A DNA stretch of 64,000 nucleotides, taken from Nanobdellota archaeon (GTDB lineage: Archaea; Nanobdellota; Nanobdellia; UBA10117; ARS21). A program made the position numbers and the translations under genes. The notes beneath the pieces were generated by a model, which did no database searches, was not told where the DNA came from, and saw only the letters and a list, made by a program, of their open reading frames with translations. Shown here in pieces: positions 8,442-35,277 of this stretch. How positions within the stretch are numbered: position 1 is the stretch's first letter; every line of letters begins with the position of its first letter. The stretch covers positions 1,327 through 65,326 of the forward strand of contig JAAZWY010000003.1 in NCBI GenBank assembly GCA_014240455.1, given 5' to 3'.

Positions 8442-8471
8442 ATTTACTCTTAATGCGTAATTTAATAAGAA

Positions 8472-9569: not shown

Positions 9570-10015
9570 AACAAACTAATTATTCCCAAACTTAAAAGTA
9601 AAGCGATTGTTGTACTAATAATTACACCCAACCCAATAACAAATTTAGATTTACGTTTCTTCAAATTTAAAATGCGAGAAATCGCAATAGCAGTAAATGC
9701 TCCAGTAACTGGCAGAGGAACTGCAACAAATAACAATAATGCCAACTCTTCCCAAGTCTCAAACTGTTTAGTATATTTCTTTATTTTCCGTTCAAACCGT
9801 TTACCAAATAGTCGATAAACCCAATCAGAAAAATGAGCTAAATCCAACAACCAAAAAGTAATTGGAATAATAATTAAATTCCCCAAGATTGCAAGAGGAA
9901 AAACATACCACAAATTCAATCCAGATGCAGCAGCATAAGCAATAGCTCCACGCCCCTCAATAACTGGAGTTCCGCTCATGATAAATGCAATCAAGTATTC
10001 AATCATGATACTCAT
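9566..10015 (-). CDS. small polytopic membrane protein (possibly small multidrug-export family)
   Basis: ORF trimmed to internal M (MSIMIEYL...); 4 predicted TM. Confidence 0.4.
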   Translation of the reverse strand: MSIMIEYLIAFIMSGTPVIEGRGAIAYAAASGLNLWYVFPLAILGNLIIIPITFWLLDLAHFSDWVYRLFGKRFERKIKKYTKQFETWEELALLLFVAVPLPVTGAFTAIAISRILNLKKRKSKFVIGLGVIISTTIALLLSLGIISLL

Positions 10016-17932: not shown

Positions 17933-17933
17933 A

Positions 17934-19145: not shown

Positions 19146-19190
19146 AATAACTCAAGAAACTTTTATATAGTAAACAAGATATAAACTATC

Positions 19191-20072
19191 ATGGGACTTT
19201 TTAATAGGAAGAAACCAGCACCAATTTCAACACCCGCTGAAGACCTAACTCTACAAGAAAAAGTTCAACCGCTTCATGATCAAATAGTTGCCGATTTAAA
19301 TTCTGCAAAATTACATTTACAAAAAATAGCTGAAAAAGAAGAAGGACTAAGATATATTGTAGCACAAACAGATTTAACCGAAGATAATTTAGTCATAAGA
19401 AAAAATAGCATTTCAGAGTTACTTGATGGAGAAATTAAAGAGTTACAGGAAGAATTAATCGCAGTAAATAAACTTTCAGAAGATATACAGGCAAGCAATT
19501 ATGATTTATTATTACAACAGGCTTCAAACCAAACAACAGTAGATGAAACTAAATTTGATTCAATAAAGGACATGTCTGCAATGGCAGAGTCAACAGACAG
19601 CACAAGAAAAGAATTGGTAAAAAACGTAAAAGCAGCAGGAAGTGAGTACAAAAAATTAGCAACAGCGCTAAACACAAAAGTAGCGAGTCTAAAAACTCTT
19701 CTTGGAAGTTCAGACTCTAAGTTGATTGAATCTGAGAAGGCACACGTAGCTACGCTGATCAGTATGCTTGAAGCGCACAGAGATTTATTAACTCAAATAA
19801 AAGTACAAATGGACACAAATCCAAATATTGAACAAGTAAAACAAGCAAAGCAAAATATTCAAAATGCACTTGAGAAATATGATGCAAGAACAGAATCAGC
19901 AAAGTTAAACGAAATTCGAGAAGAAAACACTGCAATTGAAAAGAAGATAAGCAATTTCTTCACAGAATCCGCAGCAATCCTAGATTTAGAAAAACAAGTT
20001 GAAGCAAAAGCACACGCAATACAAGAAATTGCAGCAGAATTAAATGCAAATTCAAACCTTCTAGTTTTCTAA
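19191..20072 (+). CDS. coiled-coil protein with N-terminal MGLFNRKKP motif
   Basis: 293 aa; motif family member. Confidence 0.5.
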   Translation: MGLFNRKKPAPISTPAEDLTLQEKVQPLHDQIVADLNSAKLHLQKIAEKEEGLRYIVAQTDLTEDNLVIRKNSISELLDGEIKELQEELIAVNKLSEDIQASNYDLLLQQASNQTTVDETKFDSIKDMSAMAESTDSTRKELVKNVKAAGSEYKKLATALNTKVASLKTLLGSSDSKLIESEKAHVATLISMLEAHRDLLTQIKVQMDTNPNIEQVKQAKQNIQNALEKYDARTESAKLNEIREENTAIEKKISNFFTESAAILDLEKQVEAKAHAIQEIAAELNANSNLLVF

Positions 20073-20119: not shown

Positions 20120-20698
20120 ATGGTAGAAATCGTAAATCCGTTAAGAAACGGTATTGAAATCATTGAAGCTTTCGGATTCTTTAATGTTGTACTTCCATTT
20201 ATTTTAGTATACGCATTAGTATATGGTGTCTTAATCAAAACAGACTTATTCAATTTCTCAAAATCCTCACAAGGACAGAATGTTTCAAATGTAATTGCTT
20301 TAGCAACAGCATTCTTTGTTGTAGCATCAACAGACGTAGTAAATCAAATGCTTGGAGTAATACCTCAGGCAACATTCATGCTTATTGTAATATTGTTTAT
20401 TCTAATGATTTTTGCAATGATGGGATTATCAAATGATAGTTGGTTTGGCGAAGGTTCAGTATTCGGAAAGTTAAAGGGAATTTTTGCACTAGTTATCGTA
20501 GGAATATTCCTATTAATGATTGACGCAGGTTCTCCAACCGGAATACCGGGATTACGTCAAATAAATGAAATTCTTCTAGGTCAGGGAGCGTTCGGATTAG
20601 CATCTCCTGAAGCACTAGGAACACTAATCGGAGTATCACTAGTTGTTCTCGTTCCAGTCGCAGTTGTATTGTTCCTAACTTGGAGCGGCAAGGATTAA
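20120..20698 (+). CDS. 4-TM membrane protein, paralog A
   Basis: 192 aa; conserved N-terminal GIEIIEAFGFFNVVLP. Confidence 0.5.
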   Translation: MVEIVNPLRNGIEIIEAFGFFNVVLPFILVYALVYGVLIKTDLFNFSKSSQGQNVSNVIALATAFFVVASTDVVNQMLGVIPQATFMLIVILFILMIFAMMGLSNDSWFGEGSVFGKLKGIFALVIVGIFLLMIDAGSPTGIPGLRQINEILLGQGAFGLASPEALGTLIGVSLVVLVPVAVVLFLTWSGKD

Positions 20699-20699
20699 A

Positions 20700-21350
20700 A
20701 TGGCAGCAGAAACACCACTCTTAGTAAAGGGAATAGAACTTCTAAGAGACCTGGGTTTCTACGATGTAATAATTCCTGGAGCATTAATAATCGCAGCAAC
20801 ATATGCGGTGTTAACAAAATTAGAGTTCTTCTCAGAGAATCGAGGAGTAAATATGGTCATTGCACTCTCAACAGGACTAATCATAATCTCATTCAGTCCA
20901 GCAGTAAAACTAATCTCATTATTTCTAGTATATTCTCTGATGTTGTTCTCGGCCGTGATGTTTCTAATGTTAATATTCGCATTCATGGGAGTAACAGAAA
21001 AGGACTTTGCAAATGTTGCAAAAGATTCAACAGTACATACTGCCATAATAGTAGGTTTAGTAATTATCGGAGTTATAGTTACGGCACAATCGCTACCTGC
21101 ATTCGGACAAGCACAAACAACTGAAGGAACAGAATTCGGATTTGAACCAATCGGAGGCGAGACCACAACAGATTCCGGAGATCTAAGAGAAGGAGACTTA
21201 CTATTAGCAGACGGACTAACTGGATCAAAAACAACAACAGAGGCAGGACTTGAAGTAATATTCAACCCTTCAGTATTATCAGTAATAATTATGTTTTTAA
21301 TATTTGCTGGAGCATCAATAATGATTTCCAGAGGAAAAAGAATAACTTAA
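20700..21350 (+). CDS. 4-TM membrane protein, paralog B with Thr-rich acidic tail
   Basis: 216 aa; GIELLRDLGFYDVIIP N-terminus parallels 20120 gene. Confidence 0.5.
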   Translation: MAAETPLLVKGIELLRDLGFYDVIIPGALIIAATYAVLTKLEFFSENRGVNMVIALSTGLIIISFSPAVKLISLFLVYSLMLFSAVMFLMLIFAFMGVTEKDFANVAKDSTVHTAIIVGLVIIGVIVTAQSLPAFGQAQTTEGTEFGFEPIGGETTTDSGDLREGDLLLADGLTGSKTTTEAGLEVIFNPSVLSVIIMFLIFAGASIMISRGKRIT

Positions 21351-21931
21351 ATTTCTGATTTTTCAGGAGAAACAGATTTTTTACCAACCATATCACTCAG
21401 CCTATTTACATTATCCGTAAATTGAGGAATAATCTTTTCAAAAACTTTACCCATTGCTTGGATTTCAACATTAACTCCTTGTAATGATTTATTGTATTCA
21501 TCAACTTTTCCAAGCATTGCATTTTGAGCATCACTAACTTTCTTATCTAATGCCTCAAGCTGAGATTTAAACTCTTTAACCTGTACATCAATTTCAGTTT
21601 TCCAAGACATAACCGAATCAAGTTCATCTTTAACAAGATTCCACTTTTCACCAATAATACTTTCAGCAATTTTTTCAATATCCTCAGTCAAAAGTTCTTG
21701 AGAAACGCCAACTCCAGACGGAGGCGCAGGAGTAGAATTTGGAATGCTAGGTGCAGCACTCAAACTTGTCTGAGGTCCAAAACTTGGAGGTGCTGACATT
21801 GGTCCGGGAGTGGAAGGAGCCGGCATTGGACCTGAAGGTGCTGGCGCGGAAGGACTAAATGAAGGAGGTTTAGGTAATTCAGGTAAGGCTCCACCTTTCT
21901 TTTCATCCTTTTTTCCAAAAATATCAACCAT
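21347..21931 (-). CDS. coiled-coil protein with N-terminal MVDIFGKKDEKKGG motif and Pro/Ser/Ala-rich linker
   Basis: 194 aa; same architecture as 775 gene. Confidence 0.5.
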   Translation of the reverse strand: MVDIFGKKDEKKGGALPELPKPPSFSPSAPAPSGPMPAPSTPGPMSAPPSFGPQTSLSAAPSIPNSTPAPPSGVGVSQELLTEDIEKIAESIIGEKWNLVKDELDSVMSWKTEIDVQVKEFKSQLEALDKKVSDAQNAMLGKVDEYNKSLQGVNVEIQAMGKVFEKIIPQFTDNVNRLSDMVGKKSVSPEKSEI

Positions 21932-22326
21932 TATCTTTCCTCATCTCCAGAAACGCTTTGAACACGCTTTTTGCCTTTCGATATATCCAGAGGGTTCCAG
22001 AAATTTATATATCTTTCCAAAACTTGGACATCTTGTTTAGTCGCAAAATTGCTCAATTGTGCATTCAGACGCACTATTTCATTTTTCAGATCAGTAATCT
22101 GTGAGTTAAAATCTTTAGTTTTAGTACTAAGTTCAGACAAACCAGAGGTAGCAGATTTATGTTTATCAACCAAATTATTCTCAATTAAATCAATTTGATC
22201 ACGCAAATCCCTCATTCGGTCTTCAATAAGCCCGACTCGCCTATTCAGTTTAGCTATTTCTCCAAGAACATTTCCAGAGGCTTCTTGAGACACCTTTTGT
22301 GGCATTTGAAAGGGTTTCGGTTCCAT
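21931..22326 (-). CDS. coiled-coil hypothetical protein
   Basis: ORF trimmed to MEPKPFQ...; start of 21347 gene shares its last stop base (operon). Confidence 0.45.
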   Translation of the reverse strand: MEPKPFQMPQKVSQEASGNVLGEIAKLNRRVGLIEDRMRDLRDQIDLIENNLVDKHKSATSGLSELSTKTKDFNSQITDLKNEIVRLNAQLSNFATKQDVQVLERYINFWNPLDISKGKKRVQSVSGDEER

Positions 22327-22373
22327 GATAAAGTATATATTATAAGTCGAGTTTATATTTAAGTATATCCACC
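22327..22373. promoter_or_regulatory. divergent AT-rich intergenic promoter region with TATA-like boxes
   Basis: tatatatt and tttatattta elements between divergent coiled-coil operon and secretion ATPase. Confidence 0.35.
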
Positions 22374-24629
22374 ATGGCTTCCAAAAATCCGTATCGAATT
22401 GTAGAAGAACCTGGTCAGAGAATTCTTGAGATTGATTATTCAAAAAATGTATTAACACCTTCAATTGAATCAAGCGAACCAGTTATGGCAGATACAATAA
22501 ACAAACTAATCAAAACTGGAAAGGTTTCTCAAATAATGTTCAAACAACAAGAAGATTACATTTATCCTCTTGATCAGACAACAATGCTATTAGAAATTGC
22601 AAACCTAATATCTGAATTCATAGATCGAACAAAACTACTATCTGAGGATTTCATAAAAGTTGCAGACGATACAAATCAATATTCAGACCGAATGGAATTT
22701 CTAAAATCTGCAATTAACTACGGATTAAGAGAAGATCCAATTGCATCATATCTAAGAGTAGTAACAAGATTACATTCTGAAAAAGCAAAGATGGATCTAA
22801 AAGACAATCTGAGAAAAGATTCACTACAAATATTTATCACAACTCTAGACACAATACGAGAACGACTAGAAACACTTTCCATACTAAAACTCGCTCAACC
22901 ATATCTACAAGAACACAAACCCGGAAGCAGAAAAATATATTCCAAGTTATTCAATCCAATAATAAAGCCAAATTTTCTCTATGCAAAATTAGTTACAAAA
23001 TTCCCAACTGGAGCTCAAGAATTAGATGCATACAAACTTCCGGACGGATCAAAAGTTGTAATCCTAAGATTACCTGATGAGATCAGACCAGTTTACCACC
23101 TAACACCTCCGGAATTTAATCTAACTGAAGATCGATATTCACTTTTAGGTGAAGCAAAAAGAATTGTGGCAGAACACAAACCACAACAATCAGAATTCAT
23201 AGATCCTCAAAGAACAAGAGAAATCTTCCAATCAGTAGAGCAAGATTTACTTCAAGATCTAAGTACTTCAAGAAGAGTCGAATTGAAAGATGGAGAAATT
23301 GAACAACTCGCACAGATTCTAGTAAGACACACGCTGGGTTTCGGACTGGCAGAAATAATCCTGGGAGATTCAAAAATCCAAGATATTTCAGTAAACGCAC
23401 CATCAAACCTAAATGAAATATCAGTTGTACATCAAGATCACGGAGAATGCATAACAAATATCACTCTAACAAACAAAGAAGTTGAAGGATGGGCAACAAA
23501 ACTCAGATTAATTAGTGGAAGACCTCTTGACGAGGCAAATCCAGTTCTTGATACAAGTCTAACTCTCGCAAATGCAATGGCAAGAGTATCAGCAATCCAA
23601 CCACCGCTTAGTCCTCAAGGATTAGCATTTTCATTCAGAAGACATAGAAGCAGGCCTTGGACTTTTCCATTATTCATAGAAAACAAAATGATGAATCCTC
23701 TGGCAGCAGCACTAATGAGTTTCTTAATCGACGGAGGAAGAACCATCCTGTTTGCAGGAACTCGTTCTTCAGGAAAGACTTCATTACTTTCTGCAGCAAT
23801 AGTAGAATTAATGCGATCTACTAGAATAATTACAGTCGAAGATACATTAGAACTCCCAATAACAAAATATCAAGATCTAAAATATGATATTCAATCCATG
23901 AAAGTTCAATCAGTAATAACTCAAGGAGAATCAGAATTAACTGCAACAGACGGAATCAGAACAAGTCTAAGACTTGGAGACTCAGCACTGATCGTAGGAG
24001 AAGTTCGTTCCAAAGAAGCAGTTGCATTATATGAAGCAATGAGAGTGGGAGCATTAGCAAACGTAGTCATGGGAACAATTCACGGAGATTCACCATATTC
24101 AATTTATGACAGAGTTGTAAACGATCTAGGAGTGCAAAAAACTTCATTCAAAGCAACAGATATAATTATAGTTTCAAATCCAGTAAAGTCCGCCTCAGGT
24201 ATTGGAAAACTAAGACGTGTAATTCAAATTTCAGAAGTTAGAAAAGAGTGGGAAGAGGATCCTCTAAGAGAACACGGGTTTGTAGACTTGATGGTTTATA
24301 ATCCAAAAACCGATACACTTGAACCAACCGATGCATTAATCCAAGGAGAAAGTGTTGTCCTAAAATCAATTGCATCAAGAGTTGCAGAATGGGTCGGTGA
24401 CTGGGACGCAGTTTGGGAAAACATCCAATTAAGAGCAAAAATAAAAGAAAAAATAGTTGAGCTCGGAAAAGAAAATCCAGAAATTCTAGAAGCAGAAATA
24501 ACTATCCAAGCCAATGACATGTTCCACAGAATTAGCGAAGACCTATTTGAAAAAGAAGGTCGTTCAGATCCAGAAAAAATCTATCAAGAATGGGAGGAAT
24601 GGCTGACTTCTAAACTCAGTAAATTATAA
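22374..24629 (+). CDS. type II/IV secretion ATPase (FlaI/GspE/VirB11 family), pilus or archaellum assembly ATPase
   Basis: Walker A GTRSSGKTS, Walker B-like ALIVGEVRSKEA, 751 aa with long N-terminal domain. Confidence 0.85.
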   Translation: MASKNPYRIVEEPGQRILEIDYSKNVLTPSIESSEPVMADTINKLIKTGKVSQIMFKQQEDYIYPLDQTTMLLEIANLISEFIDRTKLLSEDFIKVADDTNQYSDRMEFLKSAINYGLREDPIASYLRVVTRLHSEKAKMDLKDNLRKDSLQIFITTLDTIRERLETLSILKLAQPYLQEHKPGSRKIYSKLFNPIIKPNFLYAKLVTKFPTGAQELDAYKLPDGSKVVILRLPDEIRPVYHLTPPEFNLTEDRYSLLGEAKRIVAEHKPQQSEFIDPQRTREIFQSVEQDLLQDLSTSRRVELKDGEIEQLAQILVRHTLGFGLAEIILGDSKIQDISVNAPSNLNEISVVHQDHGECITNITLTNKEVEGWATKLRLISGRPLDEANPVLDTSLTLANAMARVSAIQPPLSPQGLAFSFRRHRSRPWTFPLFIENKMMNPLAAALMSFLIDGGRTILFAGTRSSGKTSLLSAAIVELMRSTRIITVEDTLELPITKYQDLKYDIQSMKVQSVITQGESELTATDGIRTSLRLGDSALIVGEVRSKEAVALYEAMRVGALANVVMGTIHGDSPYSIYDRVVNDLGVQKTSFKATDIIIVSNPVKSASGIGKLRRVIQISEVRKEWEEDPLREHGFVDLMVYNPKTDTLEPTDALIQGESVVLKSIASRVAEWVGDWDAVWENIQLRAKIKEKIVELGKENPEILEAEITIQANDMFHRISEDLFEKEGRSDPEKIYQEWEEWLTSKLSKL

Positions 24630-24631
24630 TT

Positions 24632-26656
24632 GTGGCAAACGAATTTGAAAAGCGACTAGAAAAAGCTGAAGGTACGTCGGAACAACAGCCACAAATATCT
24701 TACTCGCAAGCATATGAACAATTCAAAGCAGATCAAACAACTGCAATTACTTCAACTTACGAACGTGCAGCAAACTTCGCAGGAAAAATTCTAAAATTAA
24801 AAGTCAAAGAAGCAGACAGAGAAAAACTAGAGCGATACATACAAATGACTCACATGAATATCCAACCAGAGTATGTAAATTCTCTAGCACTACTTTCAGC
24901 AATTCCATTTCTGATCGCAGCAATTGCAACGTTCATCATTACAGACTCAATATTTTTCCCAGCACTTCTATTTGGCTCAGCAATATTTGCATTATATTAT
25001 TTTGCAAATACTCCAAAACACATATATGATTCTTGGAGAGCAAGAGCGTCAGACCAAATAATGCTTACTGTATTGTATATAGTCATTCACATGAAACGAG
25101 ATTCAAATCTCGAAAGAGCAATTTTGTTCGTAGCAAACCAAACAGCACCACCAATTTCATTAGATTTTATGAAAATTCTATGGGATTTTGAAACAAAAAA
25201 ATATAGCACAGTTCAAGAATCGCTTGATGTTTATTTGGAAACTTGGAAAGAATCAGAACCGGCATTTGTTGATGCCATGCATTTAGTAGAATCCTCCTTG
25301 GCTCAACCAAATTCAGAACAAGCAAGAAAAACATTGGATAAGGCCAATGATGTAATTACTCAAGGAATCCAAGATAACATGACTCACTTCGCGCACAATC
25401 TAAAAAACCCAGTACAAATGATTCACATGCTTGGAATCGTTCTTCCATTATTGATGCTTGTAATGCTTCCAATGATTGGTGCGTTCCTAGCAGATAGCAT
25501 TAATGCAGCACAGTTAATTACTATTTACAACGTAGTACTTCCAATATTCGTATTCATCACTGCGAGAAATATAATTGCAGTTCGGCCGGGCGGAGCAAGC
25601 GTACAAAACAAGCGATTAATTGAAGCAGCACCGAAAGCAGGAGCAAAACCGCTAGTATTCTCTGCAGCAGTATTTACAATAATTGTTCTACCTGCAATCT
25701 TAGTACTCGCATCAATAATAACTTCGGGAAACTGGGAAACATTAAAGTTTGAGAATTCAGTATTCTTTCTAACGCTCGCAATAATTTTTGCAACAGGTTT
25801 AGCAGCATATGTTTACTTCCATTTCAAAAATAAAGACTTAATTAAATTAAAAGGTAAGATTGAAAATATAGAAGATCAATTCTCCTCAGCAATATTCCAA
25901 CTTGGAAATAGAATCGGAGAAAACATTCCGGCAGAAGCAGCATTCGGACACGTAGCAGAAAACATGAAAGGTAGTGAAATAGCAAAATTCTTTGAAATAG
26001 TTGATTCAAATATACGACAGAGTGGAATGACTCTAGACGATGCAATTTTTGACCCAAAAAACGGAGCCAGTAATTTATACCCTTCAGAATTAATAGATTC
26101 TATCATGAAACTGCTCTTAGAAGCAGTTAAGAAAAGCCCAAAAGTGGCAGCAGAATCGATGACTTCTTTGTCAAAATACCTACAAAAAATGCATCAAGTT
26201 AAGGAAAGAATGACTGATTTGCTTTCAGATACACTTTCATCGATGAGAATGCAGGCCTCATTCCTCGCACCACTAGTTTCAGCACTAGTTGTAAGCCTTT
26301 CAGTACTAATAACTCGAGTATTAATGAATTTAACTTCTCAACTTGATACGCTCCAAACTTCAGGAACGGGAGATGCAGGACTTGGATTCGGAACAGGATT
26401 AGCCTCAATTTTCAAAGTTGAAGCGGCAATGCCTCCATATTTGTTACAATTAATGGTCGGATTTTATATAATTCAAGTAGTATTCTTGCTCAGCTATGCG
26501 CTCTCAGGAATTGTAAAGGGTCCAGGAAAGATAGATTTCCAATGGACTTTTTCTCAAAATATTCTAAGAAGTACGCTTCTCTACTGCGGACTAACATTAG
26601 TAGGAACAATAATATTCTCATCCCTAGCATTCATTGTAACAGCTGCAGTCGCATAA
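24632..26656 (+). CDS. FlaJ/TadC/GspF-family polytopic platform membrane protein
   Basis: 674 aa, two groups of TM helices separated by cytoplasmic domains, immediately downstream of ATPase. Confidence 0.8.
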   Translation: MANEFEKRLEKAEGTSEQQPQISYSQAYEQFKADQTTAITSTYERAANFAGKILKLKVKEADREKLERYIQMTHMNIQPEYVNSLALLSAIPFLIAAIATFIITDSIFFPALLFGSAIFALYYFANTPKHIYDSWRARASDQIMLTVLYIVIHMKRDSNLERAILFVANQTAPPISLDFMKILWDFETKKYSTVQESLDVYLETWKESEPAFVDAMHLVESSLAQPNSEQARKTLDKANDVITQGIQDNMTHFAHNLKNPVQMIHMLGIVLPLLMLVMLPMIGAFLADSINAAQLITIYNVVLPIFVFITARNIIAVRPGGASVQNKRLIEAAPKAGAKPLVFSAAVFTIIVLPAILVLASIITSGNWETLKFENSVFFLTLAIIFATGLAAYVYFHFKNKDLIKLKGKIENIEDQFSSAIFQLGNRIGENIPAEAAFGHVAENMKGSEIAKFFEIVDSNIRQSGMTLDDAIFDPKNGASNLYPSELIDSIMKLLLEAVKKSPKVAAESMTSLSKYLQKMHQVKERMTDLLSDTLSSMRMQASFLAPLVSALVVSLSVLITRVLMNLTSQLDTLQTSGTGDAGLGFGTGLASIFKVEAAMPPYLLQLMVGFYIIQVVFLLSYALSGIVKGPGKIDFQWTFSQNILRSTLLYCGLTLVGTIIFSSLAFIVTAAVA

Positions 26657-26695
26657 CACAAAAACTATATAAAAACCCGCGCGCATAATACAACA

Positions 26696-27133
26696 ATGTC
26701 AAAGCGCGCTCAAATTAGTATGAACACAATCGTGTATGTATCAATCGCACTACTTGTTCTAATATTAATTGTCGCATTTACGACTGGTGGACTTGGAAAC
26801 CTATTTGGGCAGGTTGGAGAGACAGGCCCGGGTGAACTTGATTCAGCAAAAGCTCGTTGTACGACAATATGTAACTCACTGAAAACTGAAGTAGCAACAA
26901 GCGGACATTCTGGATGGACAACTTCACAATACTGTACTGAAGAATTTAGCATCGACATCGACGGAAGCGGAGATATTGACGCTAATGAAATAATTAATTG
27001 TGACGATGTACCAATCTCAACAGCGTGTTCAACAACTTCTTCCACTGCACTTGGAACTTTGTCATTGACAGAAGTTGAATGTAATCCTGCCAAATATTCA
27101 GACGCACTAGACGGATTAAAGACCGGAGCATAA
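26696..27133 (+). CDS. class III signal peptide (type IV pilin-like) protein, Cys-rich
   Basis: MSKRAQ|ISMNTIVYVSIALLVLILIVAF prepilin-like N-terminus. Confidence 0.65.
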   Translation: MSKRAQISMNTIVYVSIALLVLILIVAFTTGGLGNLFGQVGETGPGELDSAKARCTTICNSLKTEVATSGHSGWTTSQYCTEEFSIDIDGSGDIDANEIINCDDVPISTACSTTSSTALGTLSLTEVECNPAKYSDALDGLKTGA

Positions 27134-27134
27134 T

Positions 27135-27482
27135 ATGAAAAAAGGTCAATTGAGTATCAATACAATTGTTGTAACAATAATCGCACTAGCAGTTTTAATC
27201 ACACTAATACTTTTCTTCACTGGAAAGTTCGCAGACTTTTCACAAGGAGTTTCGGAGTTCGACCAAGAAGATACAACATCTGAAGCAGGATGCCAAGTAG
27301 CTTGTAATCTTGAAAAGTCTGGAGCCGGAACACCGTTTACTGACAAGCCAGAATGTGCACCCTTAGTACCTGATTGTGATTTACCAGAAGATTCAGGACA
27401 ATCTTCAAGTCCTTCCGCGCCAGCACCTTCAGGTTCTTCACCTGATGATTCAGGCTCAACCTCCGAAACAATATCATCGTAA
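27135..27482 (+). CDS. class III signal peptide pilin-like protein with Ser/Pro-rich tail
   Basis: MKKGQ|LSINTIVVTIIALAVLITLILFF; C-terminal SSSPSAPAPSGSSPDDSGSTSE. Confidence 0.7.
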   Translation: MKKGQLSINTIVVTIIALAVLITLILFFTGKFADFSQGVSEFDQEDTTSEAGCQVACNLEKSGAGTPFTDKPECAPLVPDCDLPEDSGQSSSPSAPAPSGSSPDDSGSTSETISS

Positions 27483-27520
27483 CTGCCTAAACTATTTATA
27501 TCACAATAACTTCTCTAATT

Positions 27521-27625
27521 ATGAAAGGACAAACTAATCCAATGGCTTGGGTTTCAATGCTTATTCTCGCAATCGTTGTAGTAGTCATTGGTATAATGAT
27601 TGTAAAAAATGGATTATTTCAATAA
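27521..27625 (+). CDS. 34-aa class III signal peptide-only mini-pilin
   Basis: MKGQTNPMAWVSMLILAIVVVVIGIMIVKNGLFQ; below ORF-track size cutoff. Confidence 0.4.
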   Translation: MKGQTNPMAWVSMLILAIVVVVIGIMIVKNGLFQ

Positions 27626-28613
27626 ACGCGGAGGAGTAAATTTTCAAGTTGTAGCAATAGTTATGGCAATCGTTAGTTTCGGAGTTGCAATAATGATATA
27701 CGCAGGTGTTGGAGATGTTGTTATGGAGAATGCAGATTTTAATTGCATTGTCGGAAATCGACTAGCAAATTTAGCAGGATCAACATCAAATCCTTGCCGA
27801 ACAACCCTCGCAACAATTGAGCAAATTGATTTCAAGGAAGATTTAACTGTAAATCATTTAGAATGTCCTCAAATAAGTAGCACAGGTTGGGACATAAAAA
27901 CAGTAGCAAAGAATTGCGGAGCAGTAAAACTGGCAGACAAAGGAGTAATATGCTGGATAAATTATTTGAGTGGAGAAGGAACTCTCCAAACTTCAACCTG
28001 CTATAATTTATGTATGAAACCGTCTTACGGAAGTATTGAAGTCAAAGATTCCGAAGGAGTAATTCCACTGGAATTCACGGGATTAACTGCAGAAAATCTG
28101 AAGATATTTGAAGACGATGGATTTAATTCCAAAAATCCACAACATTTGAGAAATCTAAAAGACACATCTGAAAGATTAGAACTATCTCTAACTACCGAAG
28201 GAATAGAATACAAAAAACTTCGAAGCGGAGATTTAACAATAGTAGTTGAGATTCCATTCCAAGATATTTATGTTTCAGACATTGCTTATGTTTTTGAAGA
28301 AGAGCAAACAAGCACAGGCGGAAACCGAGGAGAACGCTACACAGATAAAATCAGCAAAGACAATCTTCGAATGAATACCGTTTCATATTATGATCAAGGA
28401 CCTTTTGACTTTGACACAAACACATTCAGACCAAGTACCGACAATGATGAACTGTTCACTTTCAACCAAGATGAATCTTGGATAATTCAGTATCAAGACT
28501 CCGAAGATTGGGCAAGAGTTCCTTTCCTTGGAGAAGCTTCAGACATAAGTGGTTATTGGGATACAGATATCTCTGAAGATTCTCTGAACTACGGATACAA
28601 CGGCGTCTGCTAA
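27609..28613 (+). CDS. pilin-like protein with large Cys-containing globular domain
   Basis: MDYFNKRGG|VNFQVVAIVMAIVSFGVAIMIYAG. Confidence 0.55.
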   Translation: MDYFNKRGGVNFQVVAIVMAIVSFGVAIMIYAGVGDVVMENADFNCIVGNRLANLAGSTSNPCRTTLATIEQIDFKEDLTVNHLECPQISSTGWDIKTVAKNCGAVKLADKGVICWINYLSGEGTLQTSTCYNLCMKPSYGSIEVKDSEGVIPLEFTGLTAENLKIFEDDGFNSKNPQHLRNLKDTSERLELSLTTEGIEYKKLRSGDLTIVVEIPFQDIYVSDIAYVFEEEQTSTGGNRGERYTDKISKDNLRMNTVSYYDQGPFDFDTNTFRPSTDNDELFTFNQDESWIIQYQDSEDWARVPFLGEASDISGYWDTDISEDSLNYGYNGVC

Positions 28614-28645
28614 AGTTTTTATATCTCAAAGGATTCTCATAATCT

Positions 28646-28795
28646 ATGCGACGAGCTCAAGCCAACTGGCAAGTTATCACTCTATTGATTGCAGTCATAT
28701 TTTTGCTAATTTTCATAGGATTCGTAGTTGCACTGAAAGGAGGTTCAACTGAGTTAGTAGATAAAATCGGAAACTCAATAAGAAATCTAATATAA
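28646..28795 (+). CDS. 49-aa class III signal peptide mini-pilin
   Basis: MRRAQ|ANWQVITLLIAVIFLLIFIGFVVAL; not in ORF track. Confidence 0.4.
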   Translation: MRRAQANWQVITLLIAVIFLLIFIGFVVALKGGSTELVDKIGNSIRNLI

Positions 28796-28947
28796 TGGAA
28801 CTAGCACTCAAGCAAATCATCATGATAATTATTGGAATTGTAATTGCAACACTAATAATTCTCTTCGTTCTAGGAAAAATCGGGGTTGAAGGAAGTATAA
28901 CTCAAACAATTCTTGATTTAATGAGCTCGGCAGGAGAAGGAGTATGA
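28795..28947 (+). CDS. 50-aa single-TM peptide
   Basis: MELALKQIIMIIIGIVIATLIILFVLG; 1-nt overlap with upstream stop and downstream start. Confidence 0.35.
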   Translation: MELALKQIIMIIIGIVIATLIILFVLGKIGVEGSITQTILDLMSSAGEGV

Positions 28948-29543
28948 TTAAAGATTTAATCGGAACAATATTAGGAAGAAAAGACCCAATGTACCGATTC
29001 ATTTATTATCATTCATTCAAACGATTCTTTCTAACATATTTCTTATTTGCAACAGTATTTGCCGCACTAAAAGTTATAGATGCGTATGCATTAGATCGCG
29101 TAGTTCCTGGAATCTGGTCACTAGATTTTTATTTATTATCCCTGAGCATAATACCTCTAACACTAATTGCATTGGGAATGATTGTATCAATTTCTTCAAT
29201 ACTTATATTCATAACAGCAAAAGTTCTAAAAAAACAAGTAAATTTTGCACAACTATTTTTTGCAATGCATTCAATAATCCCATTTTTCCTAATAATAAAA
29301 CTACTTATGACTTTATCAGTTCTAGCTTACGGAACAACATTCTTAGTATTATTCTTCAACATAATGATTATTCCAGCAGTTTTATACTTCCTATTCATAA
29401 TGGCAAAGACTACAAGTTATTTCACAACAATGTCACTAGGACTGTCAACTCTAACAATAATAACTATAATGCTAGTATTTGTCGTAGCACTATACTTGGC
29501 ATATATTTACATGACTGAGTTAGTAACAGCGAGTTTAATATGA
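28944..29543 (+). CDS. polytopic membrane protein of unknown function inside pilin operon
   Basis: 199 aa, ~6 TM; no GxGD/A24 peptidase motif. Confidence 0.45.
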   Translation: MIKDLIGTILGRKDPMYRFIYYHSFKRFFLTYFLFATVFAALKVIDAYALDRVVPGIWSLDFYLLSLSIIPLTLIALGMIVSISSILIFITAKVLKKQVNFAQLFFAMHSIIPFFLIIKLLMTLSVLAYGTTFLVLFFNIMIIPAVLYFLFIMAKTTSYFTTMSLGLSTLTIITIMLVFVVALYLAYIYMTELVTASLI

Positions 29544-30973
29544 AAAAAGGTCAACAAAATTACTTTATGATTGTAGTGATAATAGCAGTTTTATCACTTG
29601 TAGTTGGAATAATACTATTTGTGAATCTTGGAGGACAATTAAGAGAAAACCAAGATGTTAATGACGCATTTTGCAAATCAAAGATTGACGCACTAAGTAA
29701 AGACCTAGAACCTGAATTAACTTCAGCATGGGGTGACGCGCTACAAAACGTATTCAAGTCTTTCAGAGCATCATGTACGACACAAACAGAAGTAGTTGAT
29801 CCTCAGAACTGGGATGCTTGTGACTCATCATTCAAAGCATTGTCAAAAACAGAACCCACGGCAGCAGCAACAAATTGTGCAATGCAACAAGTTTCAGATA
29901 AGGTTCAACGATGTTGGGAAATGTCAGGAGAAGGAAGACGTACTGCATTTTCCTGGGCATGTTTCAATGTAGTAATTTCAGAAGCAAGTGAAACTCCTGA
30001 AGTAAGCAGTTATACTGAATTCAAAAATCAAATAATAAAATCATTCAACTGTCCACTATTTGACGGAACATGTAAAGACTATGCAAGAGACTCAATTGAT
30101 CCTGCAACAATTCTTGCAGCATATAATAATCTAATAGATATAACTGAATTATCAACTAAAAGTAAGATAGATTTCTGTAGAATAACAGAATTGAGTCAAG
30201 ATGATCTATCAACTGAACAAGAAATGTATGAAACTGAATTGATAAACAAACGCATTGAAGAAATTTATTCTGAATTAATTAATTCAAATGTAAACTCAGT
30301 ATTAGAAAAATACGTAGTGGATAAAATGGTTGAACACGGAGATTCAGAAATAGATTGCACTTTGAATACTCTAACTACTGAAGTAAAGTCAAACTTAGAA
30401 CAAATTGAGGAATATAATTCAGACCTAGAACCCTTTGAAAACTCAGTATTAAGAAAATATAATTCGGCACACAATTCTGAGTTATCGGAACTACCTTTCC
30501 AGCTAATGAAAGATACAAGACTTGAAACAGAAACTATAACCTTCACAGAACTCGAACTAAAAAACTTCATGAAGAACATACCAATTCAAGAACAAAGTAT
30601 AAGTTATTGTGATTCAATATCTTACAAGGGAAAAGATTGTGAAGATAGAGTAGAATATTATCCCAACGGATTTAAATTGAAACAAAATAAATTATTCTCA
30701 ATTGAATATTGTGGAGATAGACTCCCTTTCGGATCAAGCCTAGTGGCAACTTCAGTTTGTGAACAAGGAGATGACCAAAGAAGAATACTAATTTCAGATA
30801 GTCCCACAGGTGGAGGATCAAGACTAATAAATGAGAACTTGGACTACAATTGCCCAATCTTAGAAACTGCAGCAGGATTGGAATTACCTTTCATAGAAAC
30901 CGGAATATCAAATCCATTTGGCGCAGCAGAAACAATCTGTAAGAAAGGAGTAGTAAGAACACTAACTTCATAA
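29540..30973 (+). CDS. large Cys-rich class III signal peptide pilin-like protein
   Basis: MKKGQ|QNYFMIVVIIAVLSLVVGIILF; 477 aa, >20 Cys. Confidence 0.7.
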   Translation: MKKGQQNYFMIVVIIAVLSLVVGIILFVNLGGQLRENQDVNDAFCKSKIDALSKDLEPELTSAWGDALQNVFKSFRASCTTQTEVVDPQNWDACDSSFKALSKTEPTAAATNCAMQQVSDKVQRCWEMSGEGRRTAFSWACFNVVISEASETPEVSSYTEFKNQIIKSFNCPLFDGTCKDYARDSIDPATILAAYNNLIDITELSTKSKIDFCRITELSQDDLSTEQEMYETELINKRIEEIYSELINSNVNSVLEKYVVDKMVEHGDSEIDCTLNTLTTEVKSNLEQIEEYNSDLEPFENSVLRKYNSAHNSELSELPFQLMKDTRLETETITFTELELKNFMKNIPIQEQSISYCDSISYKGKDCEDRVEYYPNGFKLKQNKLFSIEYCGDRLPFGSSLVATSVCEQGDDQRRILISDSPTGGGSRLINENLDYNCPILETAAGLELPFIETGISNPFGAAETICKKGVVRTLTS

Positions 30974-31013
30974 CACAGTCATCTTTTTATAAAATCGAGA
31001 CAATAATTACACT

Positions 31014-31202
31014 ATGAAATCAAGGAAAGGAATGTCTCTACCGATTGAAACAGTAATAATTATGATTATCGCAATTGTTGTCCTAGCATTAGTATTACTA
31101 TTTGTTACAGGAAAATGGACGGATCTAACGGGAACGCTTGGAGGACTTGAAACTGGAATCTCAGACGGAGCAACAGAAAGCGTAGAACAAATATTCGAAT
31201 GA
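31014..31202 (+). CDS. 62-aa minor pilin-like protein
   Basis: MKSRKG|MSLPIETVIIMIIAIVVLALVLLFV. Confidence 0.55.
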   Translation: MKSRKGMSLPIETVIIMIIAIVVLALVLLFVTGKWTDLTGTLGGLETGISDGATESVEQIFE

Positions 31203-31735
31203 AAAAAGGAGACGCATTACTTACAATTGTTTTTAGTATAATTGGCGCAATCATGATTCTCATTATCGGAACTCATGTATTCTCAACAACACTAAATATC
31301 GTAGATGATGAAGCATTAGCAGTAACTTCAATGAGACAAATTGCAACAGCGGCAAATTCTGCAAAATCGTTTGACATTTGTGCATCAGCAGAACTAAATC
31401 TGGCAAGAAGTTATCAAATTATTGCAAAAGGTAACATGCTAGAATTATATGAACAGAAAATGGCAGAGGAAGAACCAACGCTAGTGGACAGCATAACCAT
31501 CAATTCAGAATCAAGAGTAATGTGTAATTATGATGATACTCCTCAATGTAGAAATGAACGGCAGTCAGCTGAACGAGGAATGTCAATAAATCCAAATTTC
31601 GATAGAGAAATAGATCAAGTATTTTGCGTTTGTAAATACGGAGCAATAGTTAACGGAAATCAAGATTTTATAGTATATCCAAAGTCTGGATGGGAACCAA
31701 CTTGTGATGATCCAGTAAGTAGTTATCAAGCATGA
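31199..31735 (+). CDS. class III signal peptide pilin-like protein
   Basis: MKKGD|ALLTIVFSIIGAIMILIIG. Confidence 0.65.
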   Translation: MKKGDALLTIVFSIIGAIMILIIGTHVFSTTLNIVDDEALAVTSMRQIATAANSAKSFDICASAELNLARSYQIIAKGNMLELYEQKMAEEEPTLVDSITINSESRVMCNYDDTPQCRNERQSAERGMSINPNFDREIDQVFCVCKYGAIVNGNQDFIVYPKSGWEPTCDDPVSSYQA

Positions 31736-33555
31736 AATTAAATAAACGAGGACAGGGAACAAACCTAGTTTTAATAGTCGGAGTTATACTGGCAACAGCA
31801 ATTTCAGTATTTGCAGTATATACAACTTTTGATGATGTAGTACAAAATATGGTAACTGGAGATCCAGAATTGGCAGCAAGAGAATTAGCGTCATATATGG
31901 ATATTGCATCCTCATCTCCAAATGAGATCACGATATATTCATCAACACCAATAACTGTTGCAGGATTTCCGGCATATGGAACTGTTTTATTTAACGCGGA
32001 AGACCGAGAAATCAGAGTACATCCATATCCTCAAGATTTAATGCAAGCTCAAATACTAAAAAGTATGTATGGAGAAATTTCAGCAGAGGAAGCTTATAGT
32101 GTAATGGCACTATATGGTTATCGAAGTAGCAATGTTGTTTTGAGAGCACAATCTAGATTAGCAGGAAGTATAGCTCAAGATTTGGGCGCAAGAGCTGCAA
32201 GAGATCAGGCACTGCGCGATGTACAAGAAGCACTTTCTGATGATTTCTTTGGAAATTTAGATATGATTGGAAGGGACGCAATATCTGACGCCGCTTACGA
32301 TCTCTCACCAACAAACGCGAAAAAATACTTAGATCTTGAAGAGAAATATGCCAACAAATTAGCAAAAAAACAAGCAAAAGCAATACGTGCGGCAAGAGCC
32401 GGATCAAGATTAAGTAAATTAAAAAGAGCGGCAGCATGGGTATGGCCACCAAGTCTAGCAAGAAAAGCAGTAACGGGTACATCATGGGTTTCAAGTAAAA
32501 TAGGACTCACCAAGTATGCTAGCGGAGTTGTAAGGAAACTAGAATCTAAAGCAGCTAGACGTGCAGCAGTAAAGGCAGAAAAAGCAGTTGCAAGAGGCGC
32601 ATCAGTTACAATAATGTTAGATATTGGTGAAACTGCAGAAGATGTTGCATGCGCAATCCCGACGCCACCTTCACAAGTAGTATGTAAGGCAAGTTCAGTA
32701 ATAAGGAGAGGAATATTTATGGTATTCATGTTAGCAGAAGGAGCGTGGACTTTCTGGCCAATACATCATTCAATAACTAATGCAAGAGATGCAACTGAAC
32801 AAATTGACGATAAATTCGGAACTTTCGAGTTTCATACTGGAAATATACCAATTCAAGCAGAATTACCTAATTGTGAAAGCGAACCTTATGCAGTAAATAT
32901 GGATTTACCGATGGGCGAAGCGCTAGAAGCAATAGGATTACAAGATATTCTAAGTGCACAAATGAATATGCCAATGTCCGAATCAACAGAGGAAATCAAA
33001 ACTTATTCAGGAATTAAAAATAGACAAAATGAATGTTTCGATTCACATAATTGGTATCTAGATGATGGCGGATTAATTACAGACATATTATTTCTGGACA
33101 ATTATGCAATAACGCATCCTTGGACTTTGGGCGTGGCAGCACCCTTCGCAGCATGTACTGGAATTGGAATTGTCAAGGAACCAAGCTCTGGAAGTTCATG
33201 TATTATGATGATGGAAGCAAGTCTACTTGGTGCATGGTCAAACCAAGAAAACTCATGGACTACTGGATGGAAAGAAAATTGGAAAGGAAACACTTTCATG
33301 CTCGCAATAACTGCAGCAATGGTAACTGGGAAACCAATAAAATTCTTCAAGAGTAAAGAAGGAGCAATAGCATTAGGGCTATACAATTTATTACCGATGG
33401 ATTCAGTAAACTTATTCTCCTACATTTCAGGAGCGGATGAATTAATAGATGCAGATAAAGAATATTATATGGAAGATCCATTAGTAATATCCATAAGCAA
33501 AGAATACGACGAGAGTTCAGATGAATACGTCTTGGTGGTGGACAAAGCAATATGA
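31732..33555 (+). CDS. 607-aa pilin-like protein (possible tip/adhesin) with basic Ala/Lys/Arg-rich segment
   Basis: MKLNKRGQ|GTNLVLIVGVILATAISVFAVY. Confidence 0.65.
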   Translation: MKLNKRGQGTNLVLIVGVILATAISVFAVYTTFDDVVQNMVTGDPELAARELASYMDIASSSPNEITIYSSTPITVAGFPAYGTVLFNAEDREIRVHPYPQDLMQAQILKSMYGEISAEEAYSVMALYGYRSSNVVLRAQSRLAGSIAQDLGARAARDQALRDVQEALSDDFFGNLDMIGRDAISDAAYDLSPTNAKKYLDLEEKYANKLAKKQAKAIRAARAGSRLSKLKRAAAWVWPPSLARKAVTGTSWVSSKIGLTKYASGVVRKLESKAARRAAVKAEKAVARGASVTIMLDIGETAEDVACAIPTPPSQVVCKASSVIRRGIFMVFMLAEGAWTFWPIHHSITNARDATEQIDDKFGTFEFHTGNIPIQAELPNCESEPYAVNMDLPMGEALEAIGLQDILSAQMNMPMSESTEEIKTYSGIKNRQNECFDSHNWYLDDGGLITDILFLDNYAITHPWTLGVAAPFAACTGIGIVKEPSSGSSCIMMMEASLLGAWSNQENSWTTGWKENWKGNTFMLAITAAMVTGKPIKFFKSKEGAIALGLYNLLPMDSVNLFSYISGADELIDADKEYYMEDPLVISISKEYDESSDEYVLVVDKAI

Positions 33556-34052
33556 AATCAAAAAGAGGAACAGGTCAGGCAGAAATGATATTATATTTAT
33601 TCTTCGCAGTGATCTTCATTATGGTAGGAATCTTATCTGTAAAAGCATATTTACTAAATGCGGAATTGGATAAAGAATTACATCTTTCAAATCTAGATTT
33701 TGGAATAATTGGGAACAGAATGATTGCATCAGATAATTGTCTAAGTGCAAGACAAACCATAACACTAACAGACGGAGAAGACAGTTACAATGTTAATTTT
33801 GTAGAAACTGGAACGCTTATAAAAAACAGAATAACAGATCCAATAATAAACGAATGTCTAAGAGGCTTTGATAAAGAAAAGTATCACTTAACTTTTTCTG
33901 AACTTTCAGAAGACGGAACAAGAACGGTTCTTGGAAATGAAGAAGGGTATGGTTCACTGGATTGTAAGAAATCAAATAGAAAAGGAGAGTTCTTAATTGG
34001 ACTTAAAGGTTCATCAACAAGATTGGGAGTATTTGAAATATGTATAGATTGA
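33552..34052 (+). CDS. class III signal peptide pilin-like protein
   Basis: MKSKRGTGQ|AEMILYLFFAVIFIMVGILSV. Confidence 0.6.
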   Translation: MKSKRGTGQAEMILYLFFAVIFIMVGILSVKAYLLNAELDKELHLSNLDFGIIGNRMIASDNCLSARQTITLTDGEDSYNVNFVETGTLIKNRITDPIINECLRGFDKEKYHLTFSELSEDGTRTVLGNEEGYGSLDCKKSNRKGEFLIGLKGSSTRLGVFEICID

Positions 34053-34582
34053 AAAAAGGACAAATAAATTTCATGGTAGAATTAATTATCGGCGCTGTGC
34101 TAATTCTACTAATTGTAGCAAGTAGTTATTATTTTGCTGAGAATTCAAACATAAAAGCAACAGCAAAAGTATATGCAGAGAATACTGAAACAAACTGCTA
34201 TACTACACTAAATACTTTAACGCAATCAGATCAATTCCTGAATGGAAAAACATCAACTGAACTGTCTGACCGAACAAACACTATTGAAAAATTAAAGACT
34301 ATCCGAGACAAATTAGAATTGTTTCTTCCCAACTCAGACTTCAGTCTCACGCTATTTGATAAATGCGAAGATTTCAGAGGTGAGTGCGACAAAGATGAAG
34401 AGAGCATAATAATGTCTGGACAAGAACGAGCAAAAGCAAGTTCTACAGGATTTAATCCACCACCTTCCCAGTCAGAATCATGTAACTATCCAATCCCAAT
34501 TGAATGCGATCCTCAAGATTATGTGGATGCTCCAACAGAAACACAATGTAAAATGTTTATAGAAATGAGGTTGAATTACTAA
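34040..34582 (+). CDS. class III signal peptide pilin-like protein
   Basis: MYRLKKGQ|INFMVELIIGAVLILLIVA. Confidence 0.65.
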   Translation: MYRLKKGQINFMVELIIGAVLILLIVASSYYFAENSNIKATAKVYAENTETNCYTTLNTLTQSDQFLNGKTSTELSDRTNTIEKLKTIRDKLELFLPNSDFSLTLFDKCEDFRGECDKDEESIIMSGQERAKASSTGFNPPPSQSESCNYPIPIECDPQDYVDAPTETQCKMFIEMRLNY

Positions 34583-35277
34583 TGAAAAGAGGACAGATGC
34601 TAATCATCACTGCAATCGTTTTACTGGTCTCCTTAGGCGCAGTTCTAATGTGGAATGAAGGAGGTGTAACAAAAACTGTAACAATAGGACAAACTCAATC
34701 AGAAATATTTGAGACGTTCTCAATCGGGCAAATAATTAATAATTACATAATTGATTCATCTGAAATTTCAAGATGTAATGCAATGCACTCAACAGCTAAA
34801 GCTTGGGAGGACGGGACTTTGCCAACATCATCAAAAATAAAAGAATACTTTGAAGACAGATATAGAGAATCTCTGTTAGTATATATGGCAGATTTTCCTC
34901 CAATATCTGACACGTCCTTACAATCTGAGAACTCATTATATACAAACTTATTTTTCCAAACAGAGTTTGATTATGAAAATAATTTAATCAAAGGAGGACC
35001 GCAGAAAGTAAGATATAGTGGTGAAGAAGAAACAGAAATTTTCATAGATTTCCTAGAAATACTTAGCAAGGACGGATATATGTATAAAATAAGACCTGTT
35101 TATTCAATAGAATTTCAAACTGAATACTTCGATTATTTTGAAACAATGAGAGAATGGTCTTCCGGAACACCACAAGGATTCAAAGACGTAGGAATGATTG
35201 GAGAAACAAACCAAGTTCTTGCAACAACCGATTTGAAGTGTTTAGGGAAAAATGTACAGATAATTTTCACTCCTTAA
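34582..35277 (+). CDS. class III signal peptide pilin-like protein
   Basis: MKRGQ|MLIITAIVLLVSLGAVLMW. Confidence 0.65.
   Translation: MKRGQMLIITAIVLLVSLGAVLMWNEGGVTKTVTIGQTQSEIFETFSIGQIINNYIIDSSEISRCNAMHSTAKAWEDGTLPTSSKIKEYFEDRYRESLLVYMADFPPISDTSLQSENSLYTNLFFQTEFDYENNLIKGGPQKVRYSGEEETEIFIDFLEILSKDGYMYKIRPVYSIEFQTEYFDYFETMREWSSGTPQGFKDVGMIGETNQVLATTDLKCLGKNVQIIFTP

Follow-up and report, generated by a model that had tools for sequence, protein, structure and literature searches.

Gene content of the locus

The region examined lies in a 64,000-nt window (positions 1,327 to 65,326 of contig JAAZWY010000003.1, GenBank assembly GCA_014240455.1) of a metagenome-assembled genome assigned to the Woesearchaeota, a DPANN lineage. 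An initial annotation, made from the DNA sequence alone, had described a type IV pilus-like locus of a symbiont-like archaeon at 22374-35277; the open reading frames (ORFs) were found as placed, and the lineage of the contig fits the suggested lifestyle. An ORF at 22374-24629 encodes an ATPase and is separated by a 2-nt gap from an ORF at 24632-26656, which encodes a 674-amino acid (aa) protein with ~9 transmembrane (TM) segments. Downstream, 14 co-directional ORFs, many of which overlap by 1-17 nt or sit 1-2 nt apart, extend to 35277, and the gene for ribosomal protein L10e begins just past this array at 35315 (Pfam Ribosomal_L16, 1.5e-25). Twelve of the 14 encode proteins whose N-terminus resembles a class III signal peptide cut after [KR][GA], the remainder being an atypical 50-aa ORF and a 199-aa polytopic membrane protein. 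The ATPase family, the fold of the 674-aa protein, the clustering of the [KR][GA] motif and the absence of archaellum genes from the locus and its flanks all agree with a type IV pilus-like locus, as initially annotated, and one that is not an archaellum. Very likely, a machine for assembling type IV filaments (TFF) is encoded here.

The two genes at the head of the locus are:

22374..24629, + strand, secretion/assembly ATPase of the FlaI/TadA/GspE2 (VirB11-superfamily) type, 751 aa (Pfam, NCBIfam and PDB matches, motifs)
24632..26656, + strand, platform protein of the PilC/GspF/TadC/FlaJ type, 674 aa, ~9 TM segments, one gene (structure comparison)

The assembly ATPase

The ATPase corresponds to NCBI MBT4134729.1, 'type II/IV secretion system ATPase subunit [Candidatus Woesearchaeota archaeon]', and its sequence is found on many metagenome contigs. 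It matched Pfam T2SSE (7.7e-18) and the NCBIfam models for FlaI (4.5e-39) and TadA (3.5e-36), both under their equivalog cutoffs. The best relatives in the PDB were Archaeoglobus fulgidus GspE (2OAP; 1.9e-29), CpaF (2.4e-23) and FlaI (7.6e-19), which, with the T2SSE match, supports the FlaI/GspE-type ATPase of the initial annotation. The motifs are intact, with Walker A (GTRSSGKT) at 462, the Asp box at 486, Walker B (LIVGEVR) at 539 and the His box (GTIH) at 567, and relative to 2OAP the protein is extended by ~200 aa at the N-terminus and ~100 aa at the C-terminus.

An archaellum, the rotary motility filament built by FlaI, FlaJ, FlaH and FlaB, has a homologous ATPase and platform pair and class III signal-peptide subunits; the FlaI model is the best NCBIfam match of the ATPase, and JGI labels the protein 'archaeal flagellar protein FlaI'. 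However, the FlaI score (134.6 bits) is far under the 550-bit cutoff, the PDB matches to A. fulgidus GspE and CpaF are better than that to FlaI, and the large N- and C-terminal extensions differ from the minimal form described for archaellum ATPases. Searches of the locus proteins and flanks against Pfam and NCBIfam gave no match to a FlaH/KaiC-like ATPase, an archaellin, FlaF/G, FlaCDE or FlaX, and it is highly improbable that the locus is an archaellum.

The platform protein

Structure comparison shows that the 674-aa protein has a predicted platform fold of the PilC/GspF/TadC type, consistent with the FlaJ/TadC-type platform proposed initially. The protein was not recognised by Pfam, being too divergent for T2SSF, and a sequence-profile search against the PDB returned only noise. 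At least 251 proteins from Woese-, Pace- and Nanoarchaeota belong to the platform family, nearly all without annotation. In NCBI the protein of the window is named only 'hypothetical protein'.

An array of class III pilin-like proteins

The six frames of the 64 kb were searched, from every possible start, for N-termini with [KR][GA] among residues 1-16 and then a hydrophobic run of 17 aa or more. This recovered 12 consecutive ORFs in 26696-35277 and, outside this interval, one credible gene (5891-6517), the remaining matches beginning at internal starts within other genes. In the locus, 12 of 13 proteins with an N-terminal TM helix have the motif, versus 1 of 7 such proteins elsewhere (Fisher p = 0.0012). 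The array consists of the following ORFs (a slash marks the predicted cut site):

26696..27133, + strand, pilin-like, 145 aa, MSKRA/QISMNT..., own TATA-like element, candidate abundant pilin (motif scan; 34 homologues)
27135..27482, + strand, pilin-like paralog, 115 aa, MKKG/QLSINT..., Ser/Pro-rich tail (motif scan)
27521..27625, + strand, mini pilin-like ORF, 34 aa, MKG/QTNP... (motif scan; a 33-34-aa ORF is kept in related loci L007-L011)
27609..28613, + strand, pilin-like, 334 aa, ...KRG/GVNF..., 8 Cys (motif scan)
28646..28795, + strand, mini pilin-like ORF, 49 aa, MRRA/QANW... (motif scan)
28795..28947, + strand, atypical single-TM protein, 50 aa, MELALKQ..., no G/A at -1 (conserved in L007-L011; fails the motif scan)
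28944..29543, + strand, ~6-TM polytopic protein inside the array, 199 aa (no Pfam or NCBIfam match)
29540..30973, + strand, large pilin-like, 477 aa, MKKG/QQNY..., 16 Cys (fastest-evolving gene of the locus)
31014..31202, + strand, mini pilin-like ORF, 62 aa, MKSRKG/MSLPIE..., own TATA-like element (motif scan)
31199..31735, + strand, pilin-like, 178 aa, MKKG/DALL... (motif scan)
31732..33555, + strand, largest pilin-like, 607 aa, ...KRG/QGTN... (motif scan)
33552..34052, + strand, pilin-like, 166 aa, ...KRG/TGQAE... (motif scan)
34040..34582, + strand, pilin-like, 180 aa, ...KKG/QINF... (motif scan)
34582..35277, + strand, pilin-like, 231 aa, MKRG/QMLI..., last of the array (motif scan; L10e next)

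The predicted cut sites, in array order, are KRA/Q, KKG/Q, KG/Q, KRG/G, RRA/Q, KKG/Q, RKG/M, KKG/D, KRG/Q, KRG/T, KKG/Q and RG/Q. The run of consecutive prepilin-like genes in the initial annotation is thus borne out, with some adjustment of its details. The pattern M-(K/R)(K/R)-G-(Q/D), which had been given for each gene, is exact in only four ORFs; in the rest the n-region is longer or position -1 is Ala. Eight of the 12 have Gln at +1, the remainder having G, M, D or T, and two of the array genes are not prepilin-like, as the product of 28795-28947 has no G/A at -1 and that of 28944-29543 is polytopic. The former is possibly not a peptidase substrate, judging from its N-terminus. Among relatives the +1 residue also varies (M, E, G, D, I or A), and G/A at -1 and a basic n-region are strongly conserved.

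The 34 homologues of the 26696-27133 product share a nearly invariant N-terminus (QISMNTIVYV...TTGG) and six conserved Cys. For several of them (P0245, P0246, P0253, P0257 and others) the database gene call begins at the internal Met of QISMNTIVYV, so that the basic leader is lost and the class III signal peptide would be hidden from predictors. The best-conserved pilin of the set is the 31014-31202 product, with 66% identity to its counterpart in L007 and 85% to that in L011, and by analogy with Flp and EpdE it is a candidate helix-only filament subunit. The pilin-like genes diverge far faster than the motor genes; the 477-aa protein is 63% identical to its L011 counterpart, versus 96% for the ATPase and 89% for the platform, and is a candidate exposed or adhesive subunit.

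The composition of the array also bears on whether a long pilus is made. The coding capacity is mostly for large globular proteins (166-607 aa), with no one obvious major pilin, and archaeal TFF machines with such non-filament roles are known, BasEF of the Sulfolobus bindosome being one example (preprint 10.64898/2026.04.22.720090). A device akin to a pseudopilus or bindosome could display or anchor the large class III proteins at the cell surface, or drive secretion or uptake, with the mini-pilins forming only a short stalk. The ATPase does match the NCBIfam BasE model weakly (2.5e-15), but the FlaI and TadA models are matched far more strongly, and Pfam scans revealed no substrate-binding-protein domain or ABC transporter in the locus of the window. 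The mini-pilins, four conserved helix-only proteins, look like filament subunits, as does the 26696-27133 product with its highly conserved N-terminus, and a device of this kind is considered unlikely.

TATA-like elements at -45 to -15, which occur at 5% of random positions, were found only ahead of the genes that follow an intergenic gap, namely those starting at 22374, 26696, 27521, 28646 and 31014. Each of the gaps (22330-22373, 26657-26695, 27483-27520, 28614-28645 and 30974-31013) includes such an element 25-32 nt before the next start codon, a spacing that suggests short or absent leaders. The array therefore probably forms about five transcription units, with translational coupling within each, rather than one operon.

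The single gene outside the locus with a class III-like N-terminus (5891-6517, + strand) encodes a stand-alone 208-aa protein, MKIKFKG/ADFITFLVIF..., and this protein may be a further substrate of the pilus machinery.

Related loci and accessory genes

Ten related loci (L007-L011, L013, L015-L018) from species-representative genomes, with 46-96% identity in the ATPase, were compared with the window, and nearly all are labelled Woesearchaeota or Nanoarchaeota. The same gene order was found in the ten loci, and in L007-L011 it is retained gene for gene downstream of the ATPase. In L013, L017 and L018 the order is conserved in kind, with the platform followed by an array of proteins with the [KR][GA]-TM N-terminus. 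In L016 (9166-12942; RIFOXYD1_FULL_32_9) the orthologous ATPase is 1,258 aa long, with an insertion of ~500 aa right after the Walker B GE[IV]R that is probably an intein because it includes LAGLIDADG-like blocks. In L018 an ABC transporter pair (ABC_tran plus ABC2_membrane; 7378-9826) lies between the ATPase and platform genes.

Conservation extends upstream of the ATPase to a module of four genes:

20120..20698, + strand, 5-TM membrane protein, paralog A, candidate accessory component (family conserved upstream of the ATPase)
20700..21350, + strand, 5-TM membrane protein, paralog B (same family as paralog A)
21347..21931, - strand, cytoplasmic protein with a Pro-rich N-terminus and coiled-coil C-terminus, divergently oriented (conserved ATPase neighbour)
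21931..22326, - strand, 131-aa coiled-coil protein, second gene of the divergent pair (called in L001-L006)

Two or three paralogs of the 5-TM family, each of ~190 aa, precede the ATPase in every related locus for which upstream sequence is present. A hidden Markov model (HMM) of the family also matched the copies in L017 and L018, which were outside the training set (3e-40 to 2e-19). Orthologues of the 21347-21931 gene are found in the same position and orientation in L007-L011, L013, L015 and L016, and in L017 and L018 a gene resembles it by size, position and orientation only. Genes similar to that for the 131-aa protein in size, position and orientation are likewise present in related loci. 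No informative Pfam domain was found in the products of the module (20120-22326), the only matches, in distant relatives as well, being coiled-coil noise. In L013, L016 and L018 a gene for a PRC-barrel protein precedes the module, in L016 by sequence resemblance only.

Similarity to the 199-aa protein encoded within the array is detectable in L007 and L011. A polytopic ORF of similar size occupies its position in L008-L010, with no blastp match and 20-23% aligned identity.

The prepilin peptidase

No A24 peptidase was found within the 64-kb window when the six-frame translation was searched using phmmer and an HMM of DPANN A24 peptidases built from 120 sequences (best E 0.67), and in Pfam scans none of the polytopic proteins of the window was an A24 peptidase. 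This agrees with the initial annotation. The missing peptidase is not, however, a peculiarity of the system, as the homologous pilin array of both L013 and L018 has a canonical FlaK-like A24 gene at its 3' end. The L018 gene (locus of P0046; 539-kb contig) encodes a 278-aa protein with Pfam Peptidase_A24 (PF01478; 7.9e-13) and closes the array, and a homologous gene has the same position in L013. The DPANN A24 HMM matched the two proteins at 6e-104 (L018) and 1.5e-122 (L013), and on alignment with FlaK (3S0X) both catalytic Asp motifs were matched (EDLKxRE:QDFRSRE and AGGDAK:GGGDGK). For this ~280-aa family 2,346 homologues were detected, PF01478 being present in all 120 listed, and those with a taxon name are from Pacearchaeota, Nanoarchaeota or 'archaeon'. 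Given the A24 gene at the array end in L013 and L018 and the more than 2,300 A24 peptidases in the phylum, the cognate peptidase is most likely a canonical FlaK/PibD-like A24 enzyme encoded elsewhere in the genome from which the window derives.

True loss of A24 in this lineage would leave the [KR][GA]-TM proteins as uncleaved N-terminal anchors, or cut by an unrecognised protease such as the 199-aa 6-TM protein or the 5-TM paralogs. In addition to the window, L007-L011 and L017 have no A24 gene; among these L017 alone spans 10 kb past the platform gene, and L007-L011 end at or before the end of the array. In the window, the L10e gene occupies the position of the peptidase gene in L013 and L018, the locus includes conserved polytopic membrane proteins that are otherwise unexplained, and a secretion ATPase without an A24 peptidase has been reported for two nanoarchaea (Makarova et al. 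2016, PMC4858521). Against this, PibD/FlaK genes are commonly unlinked from archaeal pilus loci, A24 peptidases are abundant in the phylum, and the window covers only ~64 kb of the genome. The strong conservation of G/A at -1 and of the basic n-region is also what would be expected if A24 cleavage were maintained, and neither membrane family has a conserved Asp pair or other catalytic-looking residue set. Loss of the peptidase is thus distinctly improbable.

Both membrane families were considered as hidden peptidases and rejected. No conserved Asp was seen on alignment of the 5-TM paralogs, and the family of the 199-aa protein has no conserved Asp pair, only H23, indicating that these are not cryptic peptidases. 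The E values of 0.03-0.2 obtained with the A24 HMM for the 5-TM paralogs and the 199-aa protein reflect hydrophobic bias.

Cysteine content and missing sequons

Nine of the 13 pilin-like proteins (the 50-aa product being counted among the 13) contain Cys in the mature form, and in all nine the count is even (6, 4, 8, 16, 6, 6, 4, 6 and 2). The even counts, together with the six conserved Cys of the 26696-27133 family, suggest extracellular exposure. A gene 20 kb upstream of the array (6514-7140, - strand) encodes a membrane-anchored thioredoxin-like protein with a CSNC motif, which could be an extracytoplasmic disulfide oxidoreductase.

No N-x-S/T sequon was found in the 13 pilin-like proteins (2,628 aa, 133 Asn), versus 19.8 ± 3.9 expected, and not one of 5,000 shuffles fell to zero. 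In the same proteins the reversed pattern [ST]-x-N is at a normal level (22), and 113 sequons, versus 103 expected, occur elsewhere in the window. In a comparison that took in L007-L011, L017 and L018, the purge is shared with L011 (1 versus 18.6 expected) and L007 (1 versus 16.1), is partial at 70% ATPase identity and is absent in L017. A surface protein with an LTD domain (1455-2318, + strand) has 10 sequons versus 3.0 expected, and an S-layer-like protein (Pfam S_layer_C; 3569-5782, + strand) has nine, suggesting that the organism probably N-glycosylates other surface proteins. Taken together, the missing sequons, the even Cys counts and the thioredoxin-like protein point to pilus proteins that, in the sublineage of the window, would be non-N-glycosylated and disulfide-stabilised.

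Comparison with known type IV filament systems

The best architectural match of the locus appears to be TFF System 2 (clade 2 of the archaeal secretion ATPases). In its published description, System 2 combines an ATPase extended at both termini, one platform gene and several class III signal-peptide pilins with pilin-like proteins, membrane proteins and large proteins resembling adhesins, and A. fulgidus is among the hosts (preprint 10.64898/2026.04.22.720090). A few nanoarchaea have been placed in clade 2 (Makarova et al. 2016, PMC4858521). Like the PilB3-PilC3 adhesion pili of Haloferax volcanii and the A. fulgidus GspE (2OAP) locus, the window has an extended ATPase, one platform gene directly downstream, several class III pilins, and membrane and large adhesin-like proteins; the best solved structure for its ATPase is also that of A. 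fulgidus GspE. However, its platform, unlike that of System 2, falls outside T2SSF, its pilins match no PilA, DUF361 or Pilin_N profile, and the upstream 5-TM/coiled-coil module is not among the System 2 features described in the literature surveyed. The pilins of the window are also free of sequons, whereas haloarchaeal PilA pilins are N-glycosylated.

The Epd pilus of Methanococcus maripaludis (System 1) likewise has a large cluster of genes, its many minor pilins accompanying a major pilin that is helix-only, and the Gln at +1 and Q-x-S-x-(E/N) start seen in the window recall DUF361 substrates. The initial annotation had likened the pilins to EppA-type substrates, and this likeness stands only as a resemblance. 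In System 1 there are two platform genes and the peptidase is the 9-TM EppA, whereas the window has one platform gene, the peptidase of its relatives is a FlaK-like protein of ~280 aa, and no Pfam pilin or class III family was matched.

The bacterial Tad/Flp pilus resembles the locus in the matches of the ATPase to CpaF and to the TadA model, and in having very short helix-only pilins beside larger pseudopilin-like proteins; the JGI names 'TadB' and 'CpaA' are also in use for some homologues. It differs in that the window is archaeal, with no secretin or outer-membrane parts, and in that TadB and TadC are separate proteins where the window has a single fused platform. The leader [KR]G/Q is also distinct from the Flp leader motif, G/XXXXEY.

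Proposed mechanism

In the model proposed here, a hexameric ATPase of the FlaI/TadA family (22374-24629) would dock on the single-gene PilC/TadC-type platform (24632-26656) and provide the power to extract the twelve class III proteins, encoded directly downstream of the platform, from the membrane and to polymerise them into a surface filament. The short basic leader would be removed after [KR][GA] by a FlaK/PibD-like A24 aspartic peptidase encoded elsewhere in the genome, the gene for which closes the pilin array in distant relatives. The four helix-only mini-pilins (34-62 aa) and the two ~130-aa paralogs are candidates for the body of the filament, and the large, fast-evolving, disulfide-rich proteins of 334, 477 and 607 aa are candidate minor, tip or adhesive subunits. 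The 6-TM protein encoded in the array, the two or three paralogous 5-TM proteins encoded upstream and the two divergently encoded coiled-coil proteins may be accessory components.

Several observations weigh against a TFF assembly machine. Although 12 ORFs carry a class III-like N-terminus in the motif scan, only four of these pass a strict FlaFind-type expression, and no pilin or class III signal-peptide model in Pfam (to E<=10) or NCBIfam was matched by the pilin-like ORFs. The AlphaFold2 model of the 26696-27133 product is of moderate confidence (mean predicted local distance difference test score of 74) and comprises two helices, one of them the TM helix, with a small sheet of four short strands, for which Foldseek found no match to the PDB or to a solved pilin. 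In the platform, comparison of the N- and C-terminal halves using hhalign detected no internal repeat, and the System 2 assignment stands on architecture and the best PDB match, not on phylogeny. The absence of an A24 gene from the window belongs with these points. In favour of a TFF assembly machine are the family of the ATPase and the integrity of its motifs, the fold of the platform, the clustering of the [KR][GA] motif, the shared gene order, the A24 genes of relatives and the absence of archaellum genes.

Implications for DPANN archaea

DPANN archaea are thought to be attached to hosts, and the locus bears on the mode of attachment in Woesearchaeota; no cultured Woesearchaeota were described in the literature surveyed. 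A groundwater study distinguished bacteria of the candidate phyla radiation from DPANN archaea by the presence of pili, taking components of the type IV pilus to be "missing in DPANN genomes" (10.1101/2020.05.14.094862). Routine annotation of the locus recognises the ATPase only, leading to the impression that DPANN archaea lack pili. Nonetheless, a full machine is likely to be present and is conserved across Woese- and Pacearchaeota, and its fast-evolving 477-aa and 607-aa subunits are candidate host-contact proteins. The interest of the locus lies in this blind spot of annotation, in the sequon-free pilins and in the conserved accessory module. In other respects it is what would be expected within the archaeal type IV filament superfamily, which is very diverse.

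A broader proposal, which is tentative and more doubtful than the assignment to a TFF machine, is that these loci represent a filament subsystem specific to DPANN (Woese- and Pacearchaeal) genomes that has largely been missed by censuses using profiles and archaeal clusters of orthologous genes. Such a subsystem would be marked by a platform invisible to Pfam, pilins without profiles, a dedicated accessory module (two or three 5-TM paralogs, two coiled-coil proteins and one 6-TM protein) and, in the sublineage of the window, sequon-purged and disulfide-stabilised pilins, a design that might suit contact with, or insertion into, a host envelope. In its strongest form, the proposal holds that this sublineage has also lost the A24 gene from the locus.

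Genes upstream of the conserved module

Three further genes (16901-20072, + strand) lie upstream of the conserved module in the window. They encode a protein with a signal peptide, 5 TM segments and a PKD-like domain, a protein with CarboxypepD_reg-like and coiled-coil regions, and a 293-aa coiled-coil protein. At the corresponding positions, close relatives have bigger genes that are weakly similar to these.

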